A DNA stretch of 64,000 nucleotides from the sequence record OR670491; one strand, written 5' to 3'. Below the pieces are notes generated by a model. That model saw only the letters and a program-made list of their open reading frames with translations, ran no database searches and was not told where the DNA came from. The number at the start of each line of letters is the position of its first letter. Position 1 is the stretch's first letter. Of this stretch, positions 3,320 through 11,061 are shown piece by piece. The DNA comes from Escherichia phage vB_EcoM_JNE01. The position numbers and the translations under genes are program-made.

Positions 3320-3396
3320 AAAATCCTCCTTTATTCATTATACTATATTTAGCCAAAAAGGAAAAGCCAGTACTTGAGTACTGGCATTATAAAGAA
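3320..3396 (-). promoter_or_regulatory. conserved inter-cassette junction: terminator hairpin, TATAAT-like element, AGGAGG RBS
   Basis: minus-strand reading: gccagtactcaagtactggc hairpin + T-run, then aaatatagtataatgaataaaggagg before ATG; near-identical copies between array genes. Confidence 0.55.
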
Positions 3397-4572
3397 TCAA
3401 ATTGTAGGAAGTAGGAATTCTTTCATAACAGATGAACTACTCGCACTGACATTATCTGGTGATTTCCCTGCGTAGTATAATTTATTATTAATGAACATAT
3501 ATAATGTTGCATCATTCCCTGCAACAAGAGAAACCTCTTTATTAAAAACAACACCACTAGGTAAAATTGCTTCAACGAATGAACCTGATTCGCGTGTGGT
3601 ATTATTTGCTAATTGACCATTGTTATTATAACCAGTACTATAAATTTTACCTGAACTATAATACACAAGCCCACGTGTACTAGTGTTTTCTATACGAAGG
3701 AATTCACTATCATCTGGAACTGAAGTTGATAAAGTTGCATTTAACTTATAAGCGGATGTTGTATTATTATTACCCAACTGACCATAACCTTGATATCCTA
3801 GTGTATACATAGGACATGATTCTGGTGTACCTTTAGTTATAACACCAAAATAATTCGAACTACAAAAAGCGTCTATAACTTCTGTAACAGGTGTACCCTT
3901 ATATTGAACCCAAGGGAATACATATGATTGTTGTTTGCCATTCCCTAAAGTACCAGAGCTTGTTGTTCCGGTACGCCATATTGTATCATCAAGTTTAATA
4001 ATCCAGTTAGCAGATGTTATAGATGAACAGAATTTTTTAACATTATCAATTAAGTATGTAAATTTATTATAATATGATGCAGTGTTTAGCCCAAACTTAG
4101 CACCAGTATTATCACCTAACAAATATAAACTATTATCAGTACCTAAAATGACAGCATAATCATAACCTACATATATCTCTTTTATTTTTGAAATACCAAA
4201 TTGTGTAAAATAGCTTGTACATTCAGTGAATGTTGTTACTGTATTTGTTGTATTATTACCTAACCATTTATCAAAACCACTAAAAAAGAATCTATCATCA
4301 TTTGTGCGTATTAGACAAAAAGCGTTCCCTGTACTACACCAGAAATCTTTAACATTGCTATATATTTTTGTCCATTCCTGTACCTGTGTCGTATTACCTA
4401 GACCAAAAATACCACCATTTTGAAGACCGATGGCCCATACTGAACCATTTTTATCAAGTAGCATTGTAGTTGTAAATGAGTATCCAGATGATGGTGTAAC
4501 CAATTTAACAAAATTTGGGATATATGGCACGACCTTATTTCCGTACTTAGCCATCCTTGCAAAAGGTAACAT
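3397..4572 (-). CDS. RCC1-like beta-propeller repeat protein, paralogue 2 of 9
   Basis: 391-aa ORF; N-terminus MLPFARMAKYGN; motifs such as GYNNNGQLANN and GYQGYGQLGNN. Confidence 0.7.
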   Translation of the reverse strand: MLPFARMAKYGNKVVPYIPNFVKLVTPSSGYSFTTTMLLDKNGSVWAIGLQNGGIFGLGNTTQVQEWTKIYSNVKDFWCSTGNAFCLIRTNDDRFFFSGFDKWLGNNTTNTVTTFTECTSYFTQFGISKIKEIYVGYDYAVILGTDNSLYLLGDNTGAKFGLNTASYYNKFTYLIDNVKKFCSSITSANWIIKLDDTIWRTGTTSSGTLGNGKQQSYVFPWVQYKGTPVTEVIDAFCSSNYFGVITKGTPESCPMYTLGYQGYGQLGNNNTTSAYKLNATLSTSVPDDSEFLRIENTSTRGLVYYSSGKIYSTGYNNNGQLANNTTRESGSFVEAILPSGVVFNKEVSLVAGNDATLYMFINNKLYYAGKSPDNVSASSSSVMKEFLLPTI

Positions 4573-4646
4573 AATTTCTCTCCTTTATTCATTATAATGT
4601 ATTTACCCAAAAAAAGAAATGCCAGTACTGGAGTACTGGCATTATA
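4573..4646 (-). promoter_or_regulatory. conserved inter-cassette junction (hairpin terminator + promoter-like element + RBS)
   Basis: gccagtactggagtactggc hairpin at about 4621-4640 and conserved junction sequence. Confidence 0.5.
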
Positions 4647-5990
4647 TTATTGTAAAGGTATTTCAGTTAAGGTGCTATATTGTGTTCCGTTATATATACC
4701 CCTCCAGTATAATTTACCTTCAGTACTAATAACTAATAAACCATATGTTGTAAACCCTAGAGTTCCTCCGACATACATAGCATCTTTTATTCTAATACCA
4801 ATGTCTTCATATGTAAACTCTGATACTTCACCAGCATTCCACGCTGGACTGTAATAATAATCAGTATAAACACCATGTGCTTTATATAGGGACGTCAATC
4901 CAGGTTCAAAAATTACAGTTCCGCAGTAGTTCATTCTTATTTTAGTACTGGATGAAGTTGGTATATTACCAAAAATATTATCTTTTAACCCAGTAGTTAG
5001 AACGTTGAAACCACCACCAATGGAGTTAACGTTATTCACGCCACTTAGACTCATACCAACGTTGTATCCCATGCAATACACACTACTGCTACCATTCCAG
5101 TAAGAAAAACCGCCGCCACGACCACAACGATATAATTGTGAATTTGAACAGTACATCATACCTTCGTTTGATGCGTCATAGTCGTCTGCTGTTCCAATTG
5201 TAGCTACAGTAGTCCAAGTTTTAATTACTTGGTTTGCACTAGCTGGTGTTTGTATGCCATATCTGATATTATATCCCTTACCGACTATGGTCCCATCTAA
5301 TAATTTGGCATACAGTACTGGTCTAGCCCCATTATAATAAACGTTATTATGTGACATATCAATTGTACTTCGTAATGAAACTGCTTTTTGTGTCAATTGG
5401 TTATCTTTAGTAAAAGATGAAAAGTAGTAATCTGCTGTGGAGTTGTTTATTAAACCCTGAAAGGACTGACCCATATACCAGACTTCTCCGTTTGAGTTCA
5501 ATGCTGCCAAAATACAACTATATTTGGATGTGTACCCAGTATTAGTGCCTGGACCTTTATCATACCCACCACTGAATACCATATCAACGACATCACCAAC
5601 GCTAGTGAAATATGACGAAACATCGATGAATCCAGATGTTAAAAATGGTGCAGTCGTCATCCCTGTATTTGTGAATATTCCATTTGCATATACACCACAA
5701 AAATTATACGAACCATCAATATCCTGTACTATGATACCATTAGAAAGTAACCAAAAGTTTTTTACATTTTTACGAACCAATTCAACACCTGCACCATTAT
5801 TAGGAGTTATTCCAAATGTAATTGCTTTAGTTGTGCCCATGCCATATAAATTCCCATTGGTTGCTAATATTGCACCAAGCCAGTTTCCACCTCCATTACT
5901 ATTACGACCCATACCAATGGAATCGAATTTCTTTACAGTTGGAGCTTCTACTGTATTCCCATAATCAAATAATCTAACAAAAGGTAACAT
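4647..5990 (-). CDS. RCC1-like beta-propeller repeat protein, paralogue 3 of 9
   Basis: 447-aa ORF; N-terminus MLPFVRLFDYGN; Gly/Asn/Thr/Tyr-rich repeats. Confidence 0.65.
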   Translation of the reverse strand: MLPFVRLFDYGNTVEAPTVKKFDSIGMGRNSNGGGNWLGAILATNGNLYGMGTTKAITFGITPNNGAGVELVRKNVKNFWLLSNGIIVQDIDGSYNFCGVYANGIFTNTGMTTAPFLTSGFIDVSSYFTSVGDVVDMVFSGGYDKGPGTNTGYTSKYSCILAALNSNGEVWYMGQSFQGLINNSTADYYFSSFTKDNQLTQKAVSLRSTIDMSHNNVYYNGARPVLYAKLLDGTIVGKGYNIRYGIQTPASANQVIKTWTTVATIGTADDYDASNEGMMYCSNSQLYRCGRGGGFSYWNGSSSVYCMGYNVGMSLSGVNNVNSIGGGFNVLTTGLKDNIFGNIPTSSSTKIRMNYCGTVIFEPGLTSLYKAHGVYTDYYYSPAWNAGEVSEFTYEDIGIRIKDAMYVGGTLGFTTYGLLVISTEGKLYWRGIYNGTQYSTLTEIPLQ

Positions 5991-9735: not shown

Positions 9736-9811
9736 AATTCCCTCCTTTATTCATTATACTATATTTAATCAAAAAAAAAGAAATGTCAGTACTCAAGTAC
9801 TGGCATTGTGT
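9736..9811 (-). promoter_or_regulatory. conserved inter-cassette junction (hairpin terminator + promoter-like element + RBS)
   Basis: gtcagtactcaagtactggc hairpin at about 9785-9804. Confidence 0.5.
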
Positions 9812-10991
9812 TTATCTAAAAGGAACGCACTTTTTGAATTTATATATATATCCAGTCTCACCTTGTTCAGTAAAATACCCAGGGTTTCCAGTCCAGTATA
9901 AATCCTCACCTATACTAACTACCGATACTGAACCATTACCAATCGTACCAAACCACTCAACATGTGATAAGTCAACACTATCATCAAAGAATTCTATTGG
10001 TAATATTGAACCATAATTCCCAGAGACTGCGTTGCGGCCTAAACCAGCACCATTAGAATTATATCCCTTACCATTCGTATTAATAATGTTAGTACTGGAT
10101 TTTATTGCATTAACATAGGATACTGGTGAAAGTTTATCGAATGAATTTGCTGTTATATCGGTATAGGGATTGGTAGTAAATGATGACCTTATTATACCAG
10201 TATTTTCAGAACCACCTATAGTCAACTGTGTGTTCCAACCAGCCGCCATTAAAGACAAAGCAGATGTACTACTTTGAACAATCAAACGTGTTACCCATCG
10301 TGTAGCTTGTACTGCAATTACATGAGAACTACCAAGATTCAATGCAGTAAAACTAGTAATAGGCTTATTATCACCGGTTCCTAATTGATAAAAAGTATTC
10401 TCACCACAACGATAGTATATACCATCTTTTATATAGTGAAAGTTTCTGCTCATTTCACTAGATGCAATTGCAGATACACTAGTGTCAATTAAGAGTGGAG
10501 ATGTAATTGGTGCAGTTGCTGTACCCAATTCACTTGCACCATTCATGCCTATACCATATAACTGACTGTCACTTGTGAGTATTAGCATAGAATTGTTAGT
10601 ACTGGTTGTTGATGTTATTTTTATATCTTTTATAGAACTTGCAGAGATAGATCCAAAATATGATTCACAACGAGTCCACGTTGAAACAGAAGATGATATA
10701 CCAAACACCGAGTTTGTCCCGCTATAGTACAATTCCCCTTGTTTTGTTCTAATTATAGTACAATATAAAGAACTCCAGAAATCATCAACACTATAAGGAC
10801 ATAAAACCCATCTATCCAAAAAAGATGAACCAGTAACTCCCATTTTTGCTGATTGGTTTCCGTCCACGCATATATAATGACCCATCACTGTATAATACGC
10901 TTATTGAATTTTCATCACTATTAATTTTAACAACAGTATCTTTGACAGGGGCAATATTCCCATAATCAAATAATCTAACAAAAGGTAACAT
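9812..10991 (-). pseudogene. RCC1-like paralogue 7 of 9, interrupted by a frameshift (pseudogene, sequencing error or programmed shift)
   Basis: N-terminal MLPFVRLFDYGN fragment (about 10812-10991) is in a different frame from the main ORF 9812..10888; joining the frames near a TATATAT run (about 10870-10885) restores similarity to paralogue 5. Confidence 0.55.
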
Positions 10992-11061
10992 ATATTCCTC
11001 CTTTATTCATTATACTATATTTAATAAAAAAGAAAAGCCAGTACTGAGTACTGGCATTATG
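10992..11061 (-). promoter_or_regulatory. conserved inter-cassette junction (hairpin terminator + promoter-like element + RBS)
   Basis: gccagtactgagtactggc hairpin at about 11037-11055. Confidence 0.5.

Follow-up and report, generated by a model that had tools for sequence, protein, structure and literature searches.

The stretch of DNA analyzed here, 64,000 nt of the genome of Escherichia phage vB_EcoM_JNE01 (sequence record OR670491; hereafter the window), carries nine tandem genes for RCC1-like beta-propeller proteins of ~390 aa, all located on the minus strand at 2114-13382 in its list of open reading frames (ORFs), and this study concerns the short, near-identical sequence cassettes that separate these genes. 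A megablast search placed the window among the Asteriusvirus jumbo coliphages (PBECO4, 121Q-like, phAPEC6, slurp01, G17), with no single record spanning more than 34% of the 12-kb query at any one place. Sequence on both sides of the array (100-2085 and 13484-15500) has matches only in Escherichia phage Turkey5 (99.0% and 97.7%, respectively); Turkey5 is, therefore, the closest sequenced relative. We compared the array with those of ten other Asteriusvirus genomes (11 in total) and clustered the gene bodies at 85% nucleotide identity or more, resulting in 39 orthogroups. The gene letters used below denote these orthogroups.

In the order of transcription, the genes of the window are D (12180-13382), which is the first in the array, A (11062-12171), E (9812-10991), G (8554-9735), B (7286-8476), C (6063-7214), T (4647-5990), H (3397-4572), and K (2114-3319), the last. 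The ORF list places the start of gene A at 12192, which is probably wrong, the conserved start being at 12171. Eight of the nine genes match the RCC1, RCC1_2, or RCC1-like domain models from Pfam, and all four array proteins that were tested match phrog_4219 ("regulator of chromosome condensation"). Among these four is the product of gene T, at 447 aa the longest and most divergent member (phrog_4219 E = 8e-11), for which the Pfam search gave no match and which has orthologs only in Turkey5 (99.5%), plus a distant copy in WPEC3 (81%). Gene E is frameshifted. Compared with the intact Turkey5 ortholog, it has a 1-nt insertion and an adjacent substitution at ~10817, codon ~58 (TTTTTTGGATAG versus TTTTTT-AATAG), and the conserved start at 10991 is, therefore, out of frame with the 358-codon ORF at 9812-10888. 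This is either a pseudogene or a sequencing error.

The array contains seven full cassettes of 70-77 bp each, all inside 3320-11061 and on the minus strand. Each has four parts, namely a hairpin with the arms GCCAGTAC and GTACTGGC followed by a T-run, a promoter-like element TAAATA-N3-TATAAT, the Shine-Dalgarno sequence AATAAAGGAGG, and an identical gene start ATGTTACCTTTTG. Read from the stop codon of the upstream gene, the layout is 5-20 nt, GCCAGTAC-loop-GTACTGGC, the T-run, (G/T)(A/G)TTAAATATAGTATAATGAATAAAGGAGG, 5-6 nt, and ATGTTACCTTTTG. The 27-mer TAAATATAGTATAATGAATAAAGGAGG occurs five times in the window with three or fewer mismatches (four copies are exact) compared with 0.00 times in shuffled sequences, and TAAATA-N3-TATAA(T/C) combined with a Shine-Dalgarno sequence and ATGTTACCTTTTG occurs eight times, always before array genes and nowhere else in the 64 kb. 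The recurrence of a near-identical junction sequence, which an initial annotation of this DNA had pointed out, is thereby confirmed; the repeats are real, lie at the coordinates given below, and are well beyond chance.

The cassette between H and K (3320-3396, 77 bp) has its hairpin at 3366-3385 (-13.2 kcal/mol), followed by the T-run, TAAATA at 3346-3351, TATAAT, AATAAAGGAGG, and the ATG at 3319. Between T and H (4573-4646, 74 bp), the hairpin is at 4618-4643 (-16.1 kcal/mol), TAAATA at 4600-4605 is part of the variant TAAATACATTATAAT, and the Shine-Dalgarno sequence is the variant GGAGAG. The cassette between C and T (5991-6062, 72 bp) has a hairpin at 6034-6059 (-15.9 kcal/mol) and TAAATA at 6017-6022, and that between A and E (10992-11061, 70 bp) has a hairpin at 11037-11055 (-12.4 kcal/mol) and TAAATA at 11018-11023. 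The hairpin between E and G (cassette 9736-9811, 76 bp; hairpin 9782-9807, -9.0 kcal/mol; TAAATA 9762-9767) contains one C/A mismatch and the flipped loop TTGA; in the WPEC3 copy, which precedes gene B (locus position 10322), the mismatch position is compensated to TCAGTA/TACTGA. Two cassettes depart from the common form. The one between B and C (7215-7285, 71 bp) has a hairpin with a 7-bp stem (7260-7278, -10.0 kcal/mol), TAAATA at 7241-7246, and TATAAC in place of TATAAT, and the one between G and B (8477-8553, 77 bp) has the hairpin TACCAGTAC-TGAAATAT-GTGCTGGTA (8522-8551, -16.5 kcal/mol), TAAATA at 8509-8514, and a divergent Shine-Dalgarno sequence. In the relatives, this last type always follows gene G and precedes gene N or c.

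Single parts of the cassette also mark both ends of the array. A solitary hairpin at 2086-2110 closes it in the 28-bp gap between K and the convergent plus-strand ORF 1876-2085; this hairpin folds at -15.4 or -15.6 kcal/mol depending on the strand, has T-runs on both strands, and is likely a bidirectional terminator. A solitary promoter-like element with a Shine-Dalgarno sequence precedes gene D on the minus strand (13383-13425; GGGGTAAATATGATATAACAAATAAAGGAGG, with TAAATA at 13409-13414), and upstream of it we found no hairpin, the sequence there folding no better than shuffles (z = -0.57). The junction between D and A (12172-12182, minus strand) is free of a cassette: the stop codon TAG of D (12180-12182) sits 8 nt ahead of the ATG of A (12171) and overlaps the Shine-Dalgarno sequence AGGAGGG, which suggests that D and A are translationally coupled. 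The pair is kept together in eight of the 11 genomes.

These coordinates modify the initial annotation, in which eight uniform junctions each supplied a gene with a terminator and a probable promoter. The general layout and the identity of the first 13 coding nucleotides, which is seen in all nine genes, are as described there, but the interval 3320-11061 holds seven full cassettes rather than eight, the eighth hairpin (2086-2110) and the eighth promoter-like element (13409-13414) exist outside it, and two cassettes are variants, 8477-8553 in the hairpin and Shine-Dalgarno sequence and 7215-7285 in TATAAC and the 7-bp stem. The palindromic arms are also present, but GCCAGTACT and AGTACTGGC are 1-2 nt apart, and the 3-4 nt that had been placed between them are the loop of an 8-bp stem. 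A terminator and promoter of its own can be predicted for seven of the nine genes, D and A being an apparently coupled pair with no cassette between them, and the putative promoter, although present before eight of the nine, does not appear to be a canonical sigma-70 promoter because it has no -35 hexamer.

The cassettes are conserved in the relatives. TAAATA is present at 117 RCC1 gene starts in the 11 genomes, and in 101 of these the distance to the ATG is 31-32 nt; the hexamer that begins 3 nt past it reads TATAAT 96 times, TATAAC 12 times, and TATAAA five times. Degenerate cassettes of PBECO4, slurp01, SD-15_S21, and G17 have lost TATAAT and kept TAAATA (four copies without the hexamer). 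In ~400 kb of Asteriusvirus DNA, a total that takes in 49 kb of the phAPEC6 structural region, TAAATA-N3-TATAA was found 122 times, each time ahead of an RCC1 N-terminus. The composite element is, therefore, private to the RCC1 family, and we rejected it as a general promoter of the phage. An exact 28-mer scan of IMG/VR, aimed at cassettes beyond Asteriusvirus, matched one 348.5-kb contig only. A literature search for these cassettes or for Asteriusvirus transcription found only remarks on copy number and the terminator annotation of G17; the published RCC1 copy numbers are 13 in 121Q and 11 in phAPEC6, with one virion-associated homolog in GAP32.

All eight hairpins have stems of 7-11 bp with 4-5 G-C pairs and loops of 3-8 nt, are followed by at least five T within 8 nt, and start 5-20 nt past the stop codon of the upstream minus-strand gene. 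Their fold energies range from -9.0 to -16.5 kcal/mol (z -3.5 to -7.4). A terminator scan of the window recovered all eight among a total of 16 sites (5.4 expected), and homologous hairpins are annotated as ARNOLD-predicted terminators in the GenBank record of G17. By the sequence criteria of stem, U-tract, position, and orientation, the hairpins qualify as predicted intrinsic (Rho-independent) terminators, in line with what had been proposed initially, and it is from this anatomy and predicted folding that we infer termination. The CCAGTAC...GTACTGG hairpin has eight copies in the array region and one related long-loop copy elsewhere (846-866); it was rejected as a phage-wide terminator because there is none in the 49 kb of the phAPEC6 structural region and only this one related copy outside the array in the window. 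The hairpin at 846-866 (ACCCAGTAC-TGAAATATT-GTACTGGGT plus a T-run) is on the plus strand of the left flank, behind the plus-strand ORF 465-836; its stem is the same as that of the cassettes, and its loop resembles that of the variant hairpin 8522-8551.

The hairpins might instead be stem-loops for RNA processing or stability on one long transcript that starts at the first promoter, with TAAATA and TATAAT conserved for another reason. One promoter, that before D, would be enough for such a transcript, and stem-loops can stabilize upstream mRNA. However, the intrinsic-terminator pattern of stem, U-tract, and position recurs in eight of eight copies, TAAATA is avoided elsewhere yet stands at a fixed distance in every cassette, and an Rfam search of 1800-13800 matched no family at E values up to 1. 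We consider a single processed transcript highly improbable.

The promoter-like element is present ahead of eight of the nine array genes with the hexamer TATAAT in six copies and TATAAC in two. A -35/-10 scan found no -35 hexamer and no TG extension in any of the eight elements; the T-run fills the -35 position. Two candidates for an upstream determinant were rejected. The 3' arm AGTACTGGC resembles AGTACTTGCA, which is found at the -35 position of early promoters in the window, and was ruled out as a hidden -35 since it is 12 nt from TAAATA and 21 nt from TATAAT where 16-18 nt are needed. Comparison by eye with T4 middle promoters showed the T-run at the position of the MotA box and no TGCTT box. 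By contrast with the cassettes, the plus strand of the window at 24-39 kb has at least 11 perfect TTGACA-N16/17-TATAAT early promoters, and the phage, therefore, uses canonical host promoters for its early genes.

In the window, no hexamer is more strongly under-represented than TAAATA, with three occurrences on the plus strand (71 expected) and 14 on the minus strand (57 expected), or 17 versus ~128 on both strands together, and eight of the 14 minus-strand sites are the cassette copies. The non-cassette sites are at 43272, 48464, and 58709 (plus) and at 3291, 20282, 41952, 44833, 56322, and 59679 (minus), and TATAAATA is absent from the whole 64-kb window. This scarcity is consistent with avoidance of a late-promoter core that would be harmful when arising by chance. 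In the structural region of phAPEC6, 26 of 39 TAAATA sites are 70 nt or less upstream of a start on the same strand, the genes behind them including those for the major head (capsid) protein, prohead protease, gp226, gp228, gp231, endonuclease VII, and baseplate wedge; these late-gene sites are mostly ATAAATA or TATAAATA. A late sigma factor is known from relatives only, its gene being outside the 64-kb window: gp237c of phAPEC6 is annotated as "sigma factor for late transcription," and for the Rak2-like phages CBB and GAP32 a late motif ATAAATA and a gp55-like sigma factor have been predicted, CBB_244 being gp55-like (PMC5259590). The virion proteome of phAPEC6 holds six array members, gp003, 005, 006, 007, 009, and 010 (PMC7247149 Table 1), and late expression is, therefore, expected. 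Together these patterns make it more likely that the cassette promoter is of a late type than of the sigma-70 type.

If the promoter were instead a host sigma-70 promoter that depends on its -10 hexamer only, through TATAAT, the array would be early or constitutive and the roles of the cassettes in termination and recombination would be unchanged. The perfect TATAAT in six of the eight window copies and 96 of the 117 genus-wide copies speaks for this, as does its location, since transcription from a hexamer 17-18 nt ahead of the ATG would yield a short leader that starts at the Shine-Dalgarno sequence. On the other hand, no copy has a -35 hexamer or TG extension, whereas the early promoters of this phage are perfect in both -35 and -10; the critical last position of the hexamer is C or A in 17 of 117 copies, and four more keep TAAATA without the hexamer; and the six phAPEC6 array proteins that are virion components fit late expression. 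A -10-only promoter is thus a serious competitor of the late-type promoter but, in our judgment, rather unlikely.

Conservation extends past the start codon. Mean pairwise identity is 0.58-0.80 across about -89 to +30 of the ATG and falls to 0.39 by +31 to +50, with flanking coding sequence at 0.11-0.47; visible identity of the leader continues to about +45. The 5' coding block of all nine genes (3275-3319 on the minus strand in gene K; the other blocks end at 4572, 5990, 7214, 8476, 9735, 10991, 12171, and 13382) encodes the leader MLPF-x-R-(M/L)-x-x-Y-(G/A)-N, and across the relatives each of 89 distinct N-termini carries the 12-aa leader MLPFxRMxxYGN. A prohead-protease site (x-x-Glu) behind the leader seemed plausible in the genes of the window and was rejected, as 41 of the 89 N-termini are without Glu in residues 13-30. 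The longest exact stretches are one of 69 nt, which spans TAAATA to codon 12 and is shared by the junctions before E and T, and one of 62 nt shared by those before K and T. Despite its divergence, gene T thus agrees with gene E over 69 nt of cassette and leader. The initial annotation had noted long exact identity at regular spacing; this applies to these stretches, with units repeated every ~1.2 kb, but other junction pairs have exact stretches of 14-34 nt.

Comparison of positions 1-15500 with Turkey5 revealed five collinear blocks of 99.1, 99.0, 93.7, 96.1, and 96.8% identity that are parted by four whole-gene indels: gene H of the window is missing in Turkey5, and Turkey5 genes a, N, and d-L-V are missing in the window. 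Three-way alignments placed the first crossover in the 15-nt ATAATGCCAGTACTC, which consists of the AT lead and the 5' hairpin arm, the second in AAGGAGGAATATATGTTACCTTTTG, from the Shine-Dalgarno sequence to codon 5, the third in the first ~35 coding nt, and the fourth in the hairpin/T-run. All four crossovers are, thus, inside the cassette or the first codons, as anticipated when the cassettes were first suggested to be substrates for recombination.

Comparing array length and order among relatives had been set beforehand as the test of that suggestion, and neither is invariant: copy number ranges from 9 to 16-17 among the eleven genomes, and both order and content vary. The order is D A E G B C T H K in the window, D A d L V E G N B C a T K in Turkey5, D A L F B E C H K P in PBECO4, U J k D A L F B E C Y I P in slurp01, F J G N b D A E O B H C M Q I in EC22.5-2, F J G N D A I E O B H C a l R S in WPEC3, and F J G c A E O B H C R S in Ecwhy_1. 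Some arrays have E ahead of B and others behind it, and the same is true of G-N relative to D-A and of H relative to C; the cassette-free pairs D-A and G-N travel as two-gene modules. The closest relative differs gene by gene across the array of the window: it is WPEC3 for gene D (97.9%, with PBECO4 at 97.6%), EC22.5-2 and Ecwhy_1 for gene A (99.6%, with PBECO4 at 85.4%), and Turkey5 for genes C, T, and K (99.1-99.5%), and gene B has 90.4% or less to any relative. Among distinct ends of blocks with at least 93% identity, 161 of 178 are within -95 to +60 of an ATG, a count that is descriptive only, because such ends do not represent independent events and alignments naturally continue into shared cassettes.

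Leaders and spacers also cross the boundaries between orthogroups. The leader variants VRLFDYGN, ARMMNYGN, ARMVKYGN, and GRMIKYGN are common to different orthogroups and vary within orthogroups, which is the signature that conversion or crossing-over would leave at the 5' block. The spacer variant TTTCTTATTTGTAT is present at five non-orthologous junctions in PBECO4, slurp01, and SD-15_S21, and also in the last four junctions of EC22.5-2; the orthologous junction between H and C of WPEC3 and Ecwhy_1 has another spacer. This spread over non-orthologous junctions points, therefore, to concerted evolution.

These patterns bear on the view that the cassettes are DNA inherited by duplication and kept by purifying selection, with recombination rare and the array not shaped by it. 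The unit of gene plus junction, ~1.2 kb, has obviously been duplicated, and regulatory signals are expected to be conserved. But the exact stretches of 62-69 nt adjoin gene bodies of 11-47% pairwise identity, spacer variants are genome specific and common to non-orthologous junctions, leaders have been swapped among orthogroups, gene order differs among genomes, and four junction-bounded indels separate the window from a relative with 98-99% identical flanks. Inheritance under selection with little recombination has, in our opinion, very little chance of being the right account.

Gp46/47-like recombination nuclease subunits and endonuclease VII are among the annotated proteins of relatives (phAPEC6), and T4-type recombination is reported to require less than 50 bp of homology (PMC2839356). 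No recombinase or endonuclease was found beside the array, the nine flanking ORFs being without a Pfam match. Two side observations concern the hairpin itself. In SD-15_S21, a 105-bp stub (17601-17706) is present where PBECO4 has gene E and consists of the first ~47 nt of an RCC1 coding sequence fused directly to the base of the hairpin in the following cassette; it is a microhomology-type deletion that ends exactly at the hairpin. Furthermore, loops form reverse-complement pairs, TCAA/TTGA, TCT/AGA, TTT/AAA, and CTTGA/TCAAG (window hairpins 3366-3385 and 6034-6059 versus 9782-9807, and relatives), and it looks as if the loop had been flipped between the palindromic arms via intramolecular exchange or template switching.

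The hairpin could, then, be the recognition site of a phage nuclease, recombinase, or DNA-binding factor that actively targets exchange to the junctions. Its stem CCAGTA/TACTGG is nearly invariant in 60 distinct hairpins whose loops vary, the loop pairs look as if flipped between arms, two of the four Turkey5 crossovers are in the hairpin, one of them with 15 nt shared, the SD-15_S21 stub abuts a hairpin base, and the arms are made of AGTACT, the most over-represented hexamer of the window (307 versus 22 expected). However, the other two crossovers are off the hairpin, in the Shine-Dalgarno and N-terminal coding part, and cassette-free junctions rearrange too. Concerted evolution together with terminator function explains the invariance of the stem equally well, the flanking ORFs are without a recombinase or endonuclease domain, and the homology that T4-type recombination is reported to need is short enough, at less than 50 bp (PMC2839356). 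We regard targeted exchange as doubtful.

Taken together, it is probable that the junctions are composite cassettes that carry a late-type promoter, make insulated units of the genes, and at the same time provide a block for recombination. The 8-11 bp stem GCCAGTAC/GTACTGGC with its U-tract would end transcription of the upstream gene, and the -35-less promoter, with its invariant core TAAATA 31-32 nt before the ATG, would restart it; the strong Shine-Dalgarno sequence and the first 12 codons, which are common to all paralogs, would complete the cassette. The promoter is most likely of the T4-type late class, to be read by a gp55-like sigma factor. The anatomy of the cassettes, their predicted folds, and the traces of recombination among relatives are direct results of the comparison; initiation, promoter class, and the enzymes of recombination are what we infer here. 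With a terminator and a late promoter in each cassette, most paralogs would, therefore, be separate, insulated late transcription units, with D and A coupled. Because the block from about -89 to +30 comes back at intervals of ~1.2 kb and contains exact matches of up to 62-69 nt, it would also be used by T4-like general recombination machinery: unequal crossing-over at the block would add or remove whole genes, gene conversion would homogenize cassettes and swap leaders, and co-infecting relatives could exchange whole modules through it.

Several points weigh against parts of this composite reading. The crossover of the first Turkey5 indel shares 15 nt, which is short for classical homologous recombination, and the high identity of the cassettes is partly a legacy of their common origin by tandem duplication. 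Two of the hairpins, 7260-7278 (-10.0 kcal/mol) and 9782-9807 (-9.0 kcal/mol), are weak, and read-through is possible there. As to the promoter, TAAATA is preceded by T, G, or C in 116 copies, and just one of the 117 reads ATAAATA; the core is usually TTAAATA or GTAAATA, and TAAATA corresponds to six of the eight positions of the T4-type core TATAAATA. The element may, thus, be a weak late promoter, a promoter of another class, or a family-specific variant, and the perfect TATAAT 3 nt downstream could itself act as a -35-independent sigma-70 -10.

The crossover intervals show at the nucleotide level how a family of paralogs in a jumbo coliphage gains, loses, and reorders its members, and they define the unit of exchange as a block of ~120 bp that consists of terminator, promoter, ribosome-binding site, and first codons. 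In practice, short-read assemblies may collapse or mis-order such arrays, given exact repeats of 62-69 nt every 1.2 kb. Among therapeutic Asteriusvirus isolates, array content is a marker that evolves quickly; the cassette is a natural landing pad for gene insertion, and TAAATA is a testable late-promoter core for the Asteriusvirus group.

The window has additional features. The palindrome AGTACT, from which the arms of the cassette hairpins are built, is its most over-represented hexamer, with 307 copies in 64 kb versus 22 expected under a Markov-1 model; AGTACT-rich examples are 19301-19440, 33546-33845, and 41583-41860, and CAGTACTG occurs 61 times. AGTACT is found in all three frames (89/63/62), with 4.0 copies per kb in coding versus 9.2 per kb in intergenic sequence, and it is also frequent in the structural region of phAPEC6 (125000-174000; 90 versus 14 expected). 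We found no literature on this excess; a protein-binding, modification, or nicking site are possibilities. Direct repeats of ~66 bp, which include GATTCAGTACTGAATGATAGTACTGAATAATAGTACTCC, are present near 19.3 kb (19300-19440). Runs of small paralogous plus-strand genes encoding 60-70 aa extend from 13.5 kb (13500-17200), and strings of ~60-aa ORFs are annotated in relatives; there are few long ORFs around 17.6-19.5 kb, and a transfer RNA scan of the whole window, this region included, found none. The plus strand at 24000-39000 is a dense early-type region in which the perfect promoters (e.g., 28029-28056, 35181-35208, and 37197-37224) are located between small plus-strand genes. It also contains four copies of a 12-bp stem-loop, AAAGGGATTGACTCCGGTCAGTCCCTTT, that encloses a TTGACT -35 (27453-27480, 31471-31498, 34746-34773, and 37496-37523), and GGGG...CCCC stem-loops just downstream of some early -10 hexamers.

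The cassettes resemble several known systems. Lambdoid morons are single genes with their own promoter and terminator and are transcriptionally autonomous. The array genes are likewise predicted single-gene autonomous units. Morons have been contrasted with promoter-early stem-loops (PeSLs) (PMC2839356); the flanks of morons are not conserved and not thought to drive mobility, whereas those of the array genes are near-identical and exchanges occur there. Gene accordions, which are also found in poxviruses, share with the array shifts of copy number by unequal recombination between direct repeats. A report on evolved T4 describes them as segmental amplification and collapse via short repeats (bioRxiv 10.1101/2022.04.14.488369). 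An accordion amplifies one gene transiently under selection, whereas the array consists of standing, diverged paralogs with regulatory cassettes as the repeats.

PeSLs, which are composites of a stem-loop, a promoter, and a Shine-Dalgarno sequence, bound indels between close relatives and can excise mini-circles (PMC2839356; PMC4122927); they have been described in the T4-type phages RB49/phi1, PST/T4, and nt-1/KVP40 (Arbiol et al. 2010, PMC2839356; Comeau et al. 2014, PMC4122927). Like the cassettes of the array, they are intergenic composites of less than ~100 bp (stop, stem-loop, promoter, Shine-Dalgarno sequence, start) that are repeated in a variable region, they bound indels or replacements (four of four in the comparison of the array with Turkey5), and their homology has been proposed as a substrate for efficient recombination by the phage itself. 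The differences lie in the parts. PeSLs carry strong early promoters of the sigma-70-like kind, complete with -35 and -10, whereas the array cassette has no -35 and a TAAATA core of probable late type; the PeSL stem is typically GGGG...CCCC and lies within or beside the promoter, whereas the stem GCCAGTAC/GTACTGGC is upstream of it; and PeSLs flank unrelated ORFans, whereas the array cassettes part paralogs, with homology that runs ~35-45 nt into the coding sequence. In addition, the phage with the array is an Asteriusvirus outside the T4 group, and its cassettes are without sequence homology to PeSLs. The array cassettes are, thus, an analog of PeSLs and not a member, the defining promoter being of a different kind; it is the elements at ~24-39 kb of the window that closely resemble the classical PeSLs of RB49/phi1.

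The two internal protein (IP) loci of T-even phages are a still closer analogy. They encode virion proteins that share a leader, and non-homologous PeSL-like elements may confine their shuffling (Repoila et al. 1994, as summarized in PMC2839356; PMC12373910). Both IP loci and the array hold non-essential virion-packaged families with a conserved N-terminal leader in a small hyperplastic locus, and in both, each gene has an element of promoter and stem-loop thought to mediate or confine shuffling. By contrast, IP genes are small and unrelated beyond the leader, whereas array members are all RCC1-like propellers of ~390 aa; IP elements are built on T4 early promoters, unlike the cassettes of probable late type; and the IP leader is a proven capsid-targeting sequence that is removed by the prohead protease, whereas MLPFxRMxxYGN has no conserved protease-type Glu site behind it. 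A full counterpart of the IP loci in a jumbo phage, in which virion-carried propellers are possibly injected or surface-displayed, the leader is a virion tag, genes are plugged in with their cassettes, and a phage factor at the AGTACT hairpin drives targeted exchange, is a speculative extension of this analogy that we hold to be improbable. The process is already known from T4-type phages, and the array cassettes are a new example of it, one that extends the idea of PeSLs and IP loci, in which cassettes act as recombination linkers, beyond the T4 group to an element of the putative late-promoter type and to a tandem array of virion proteins.

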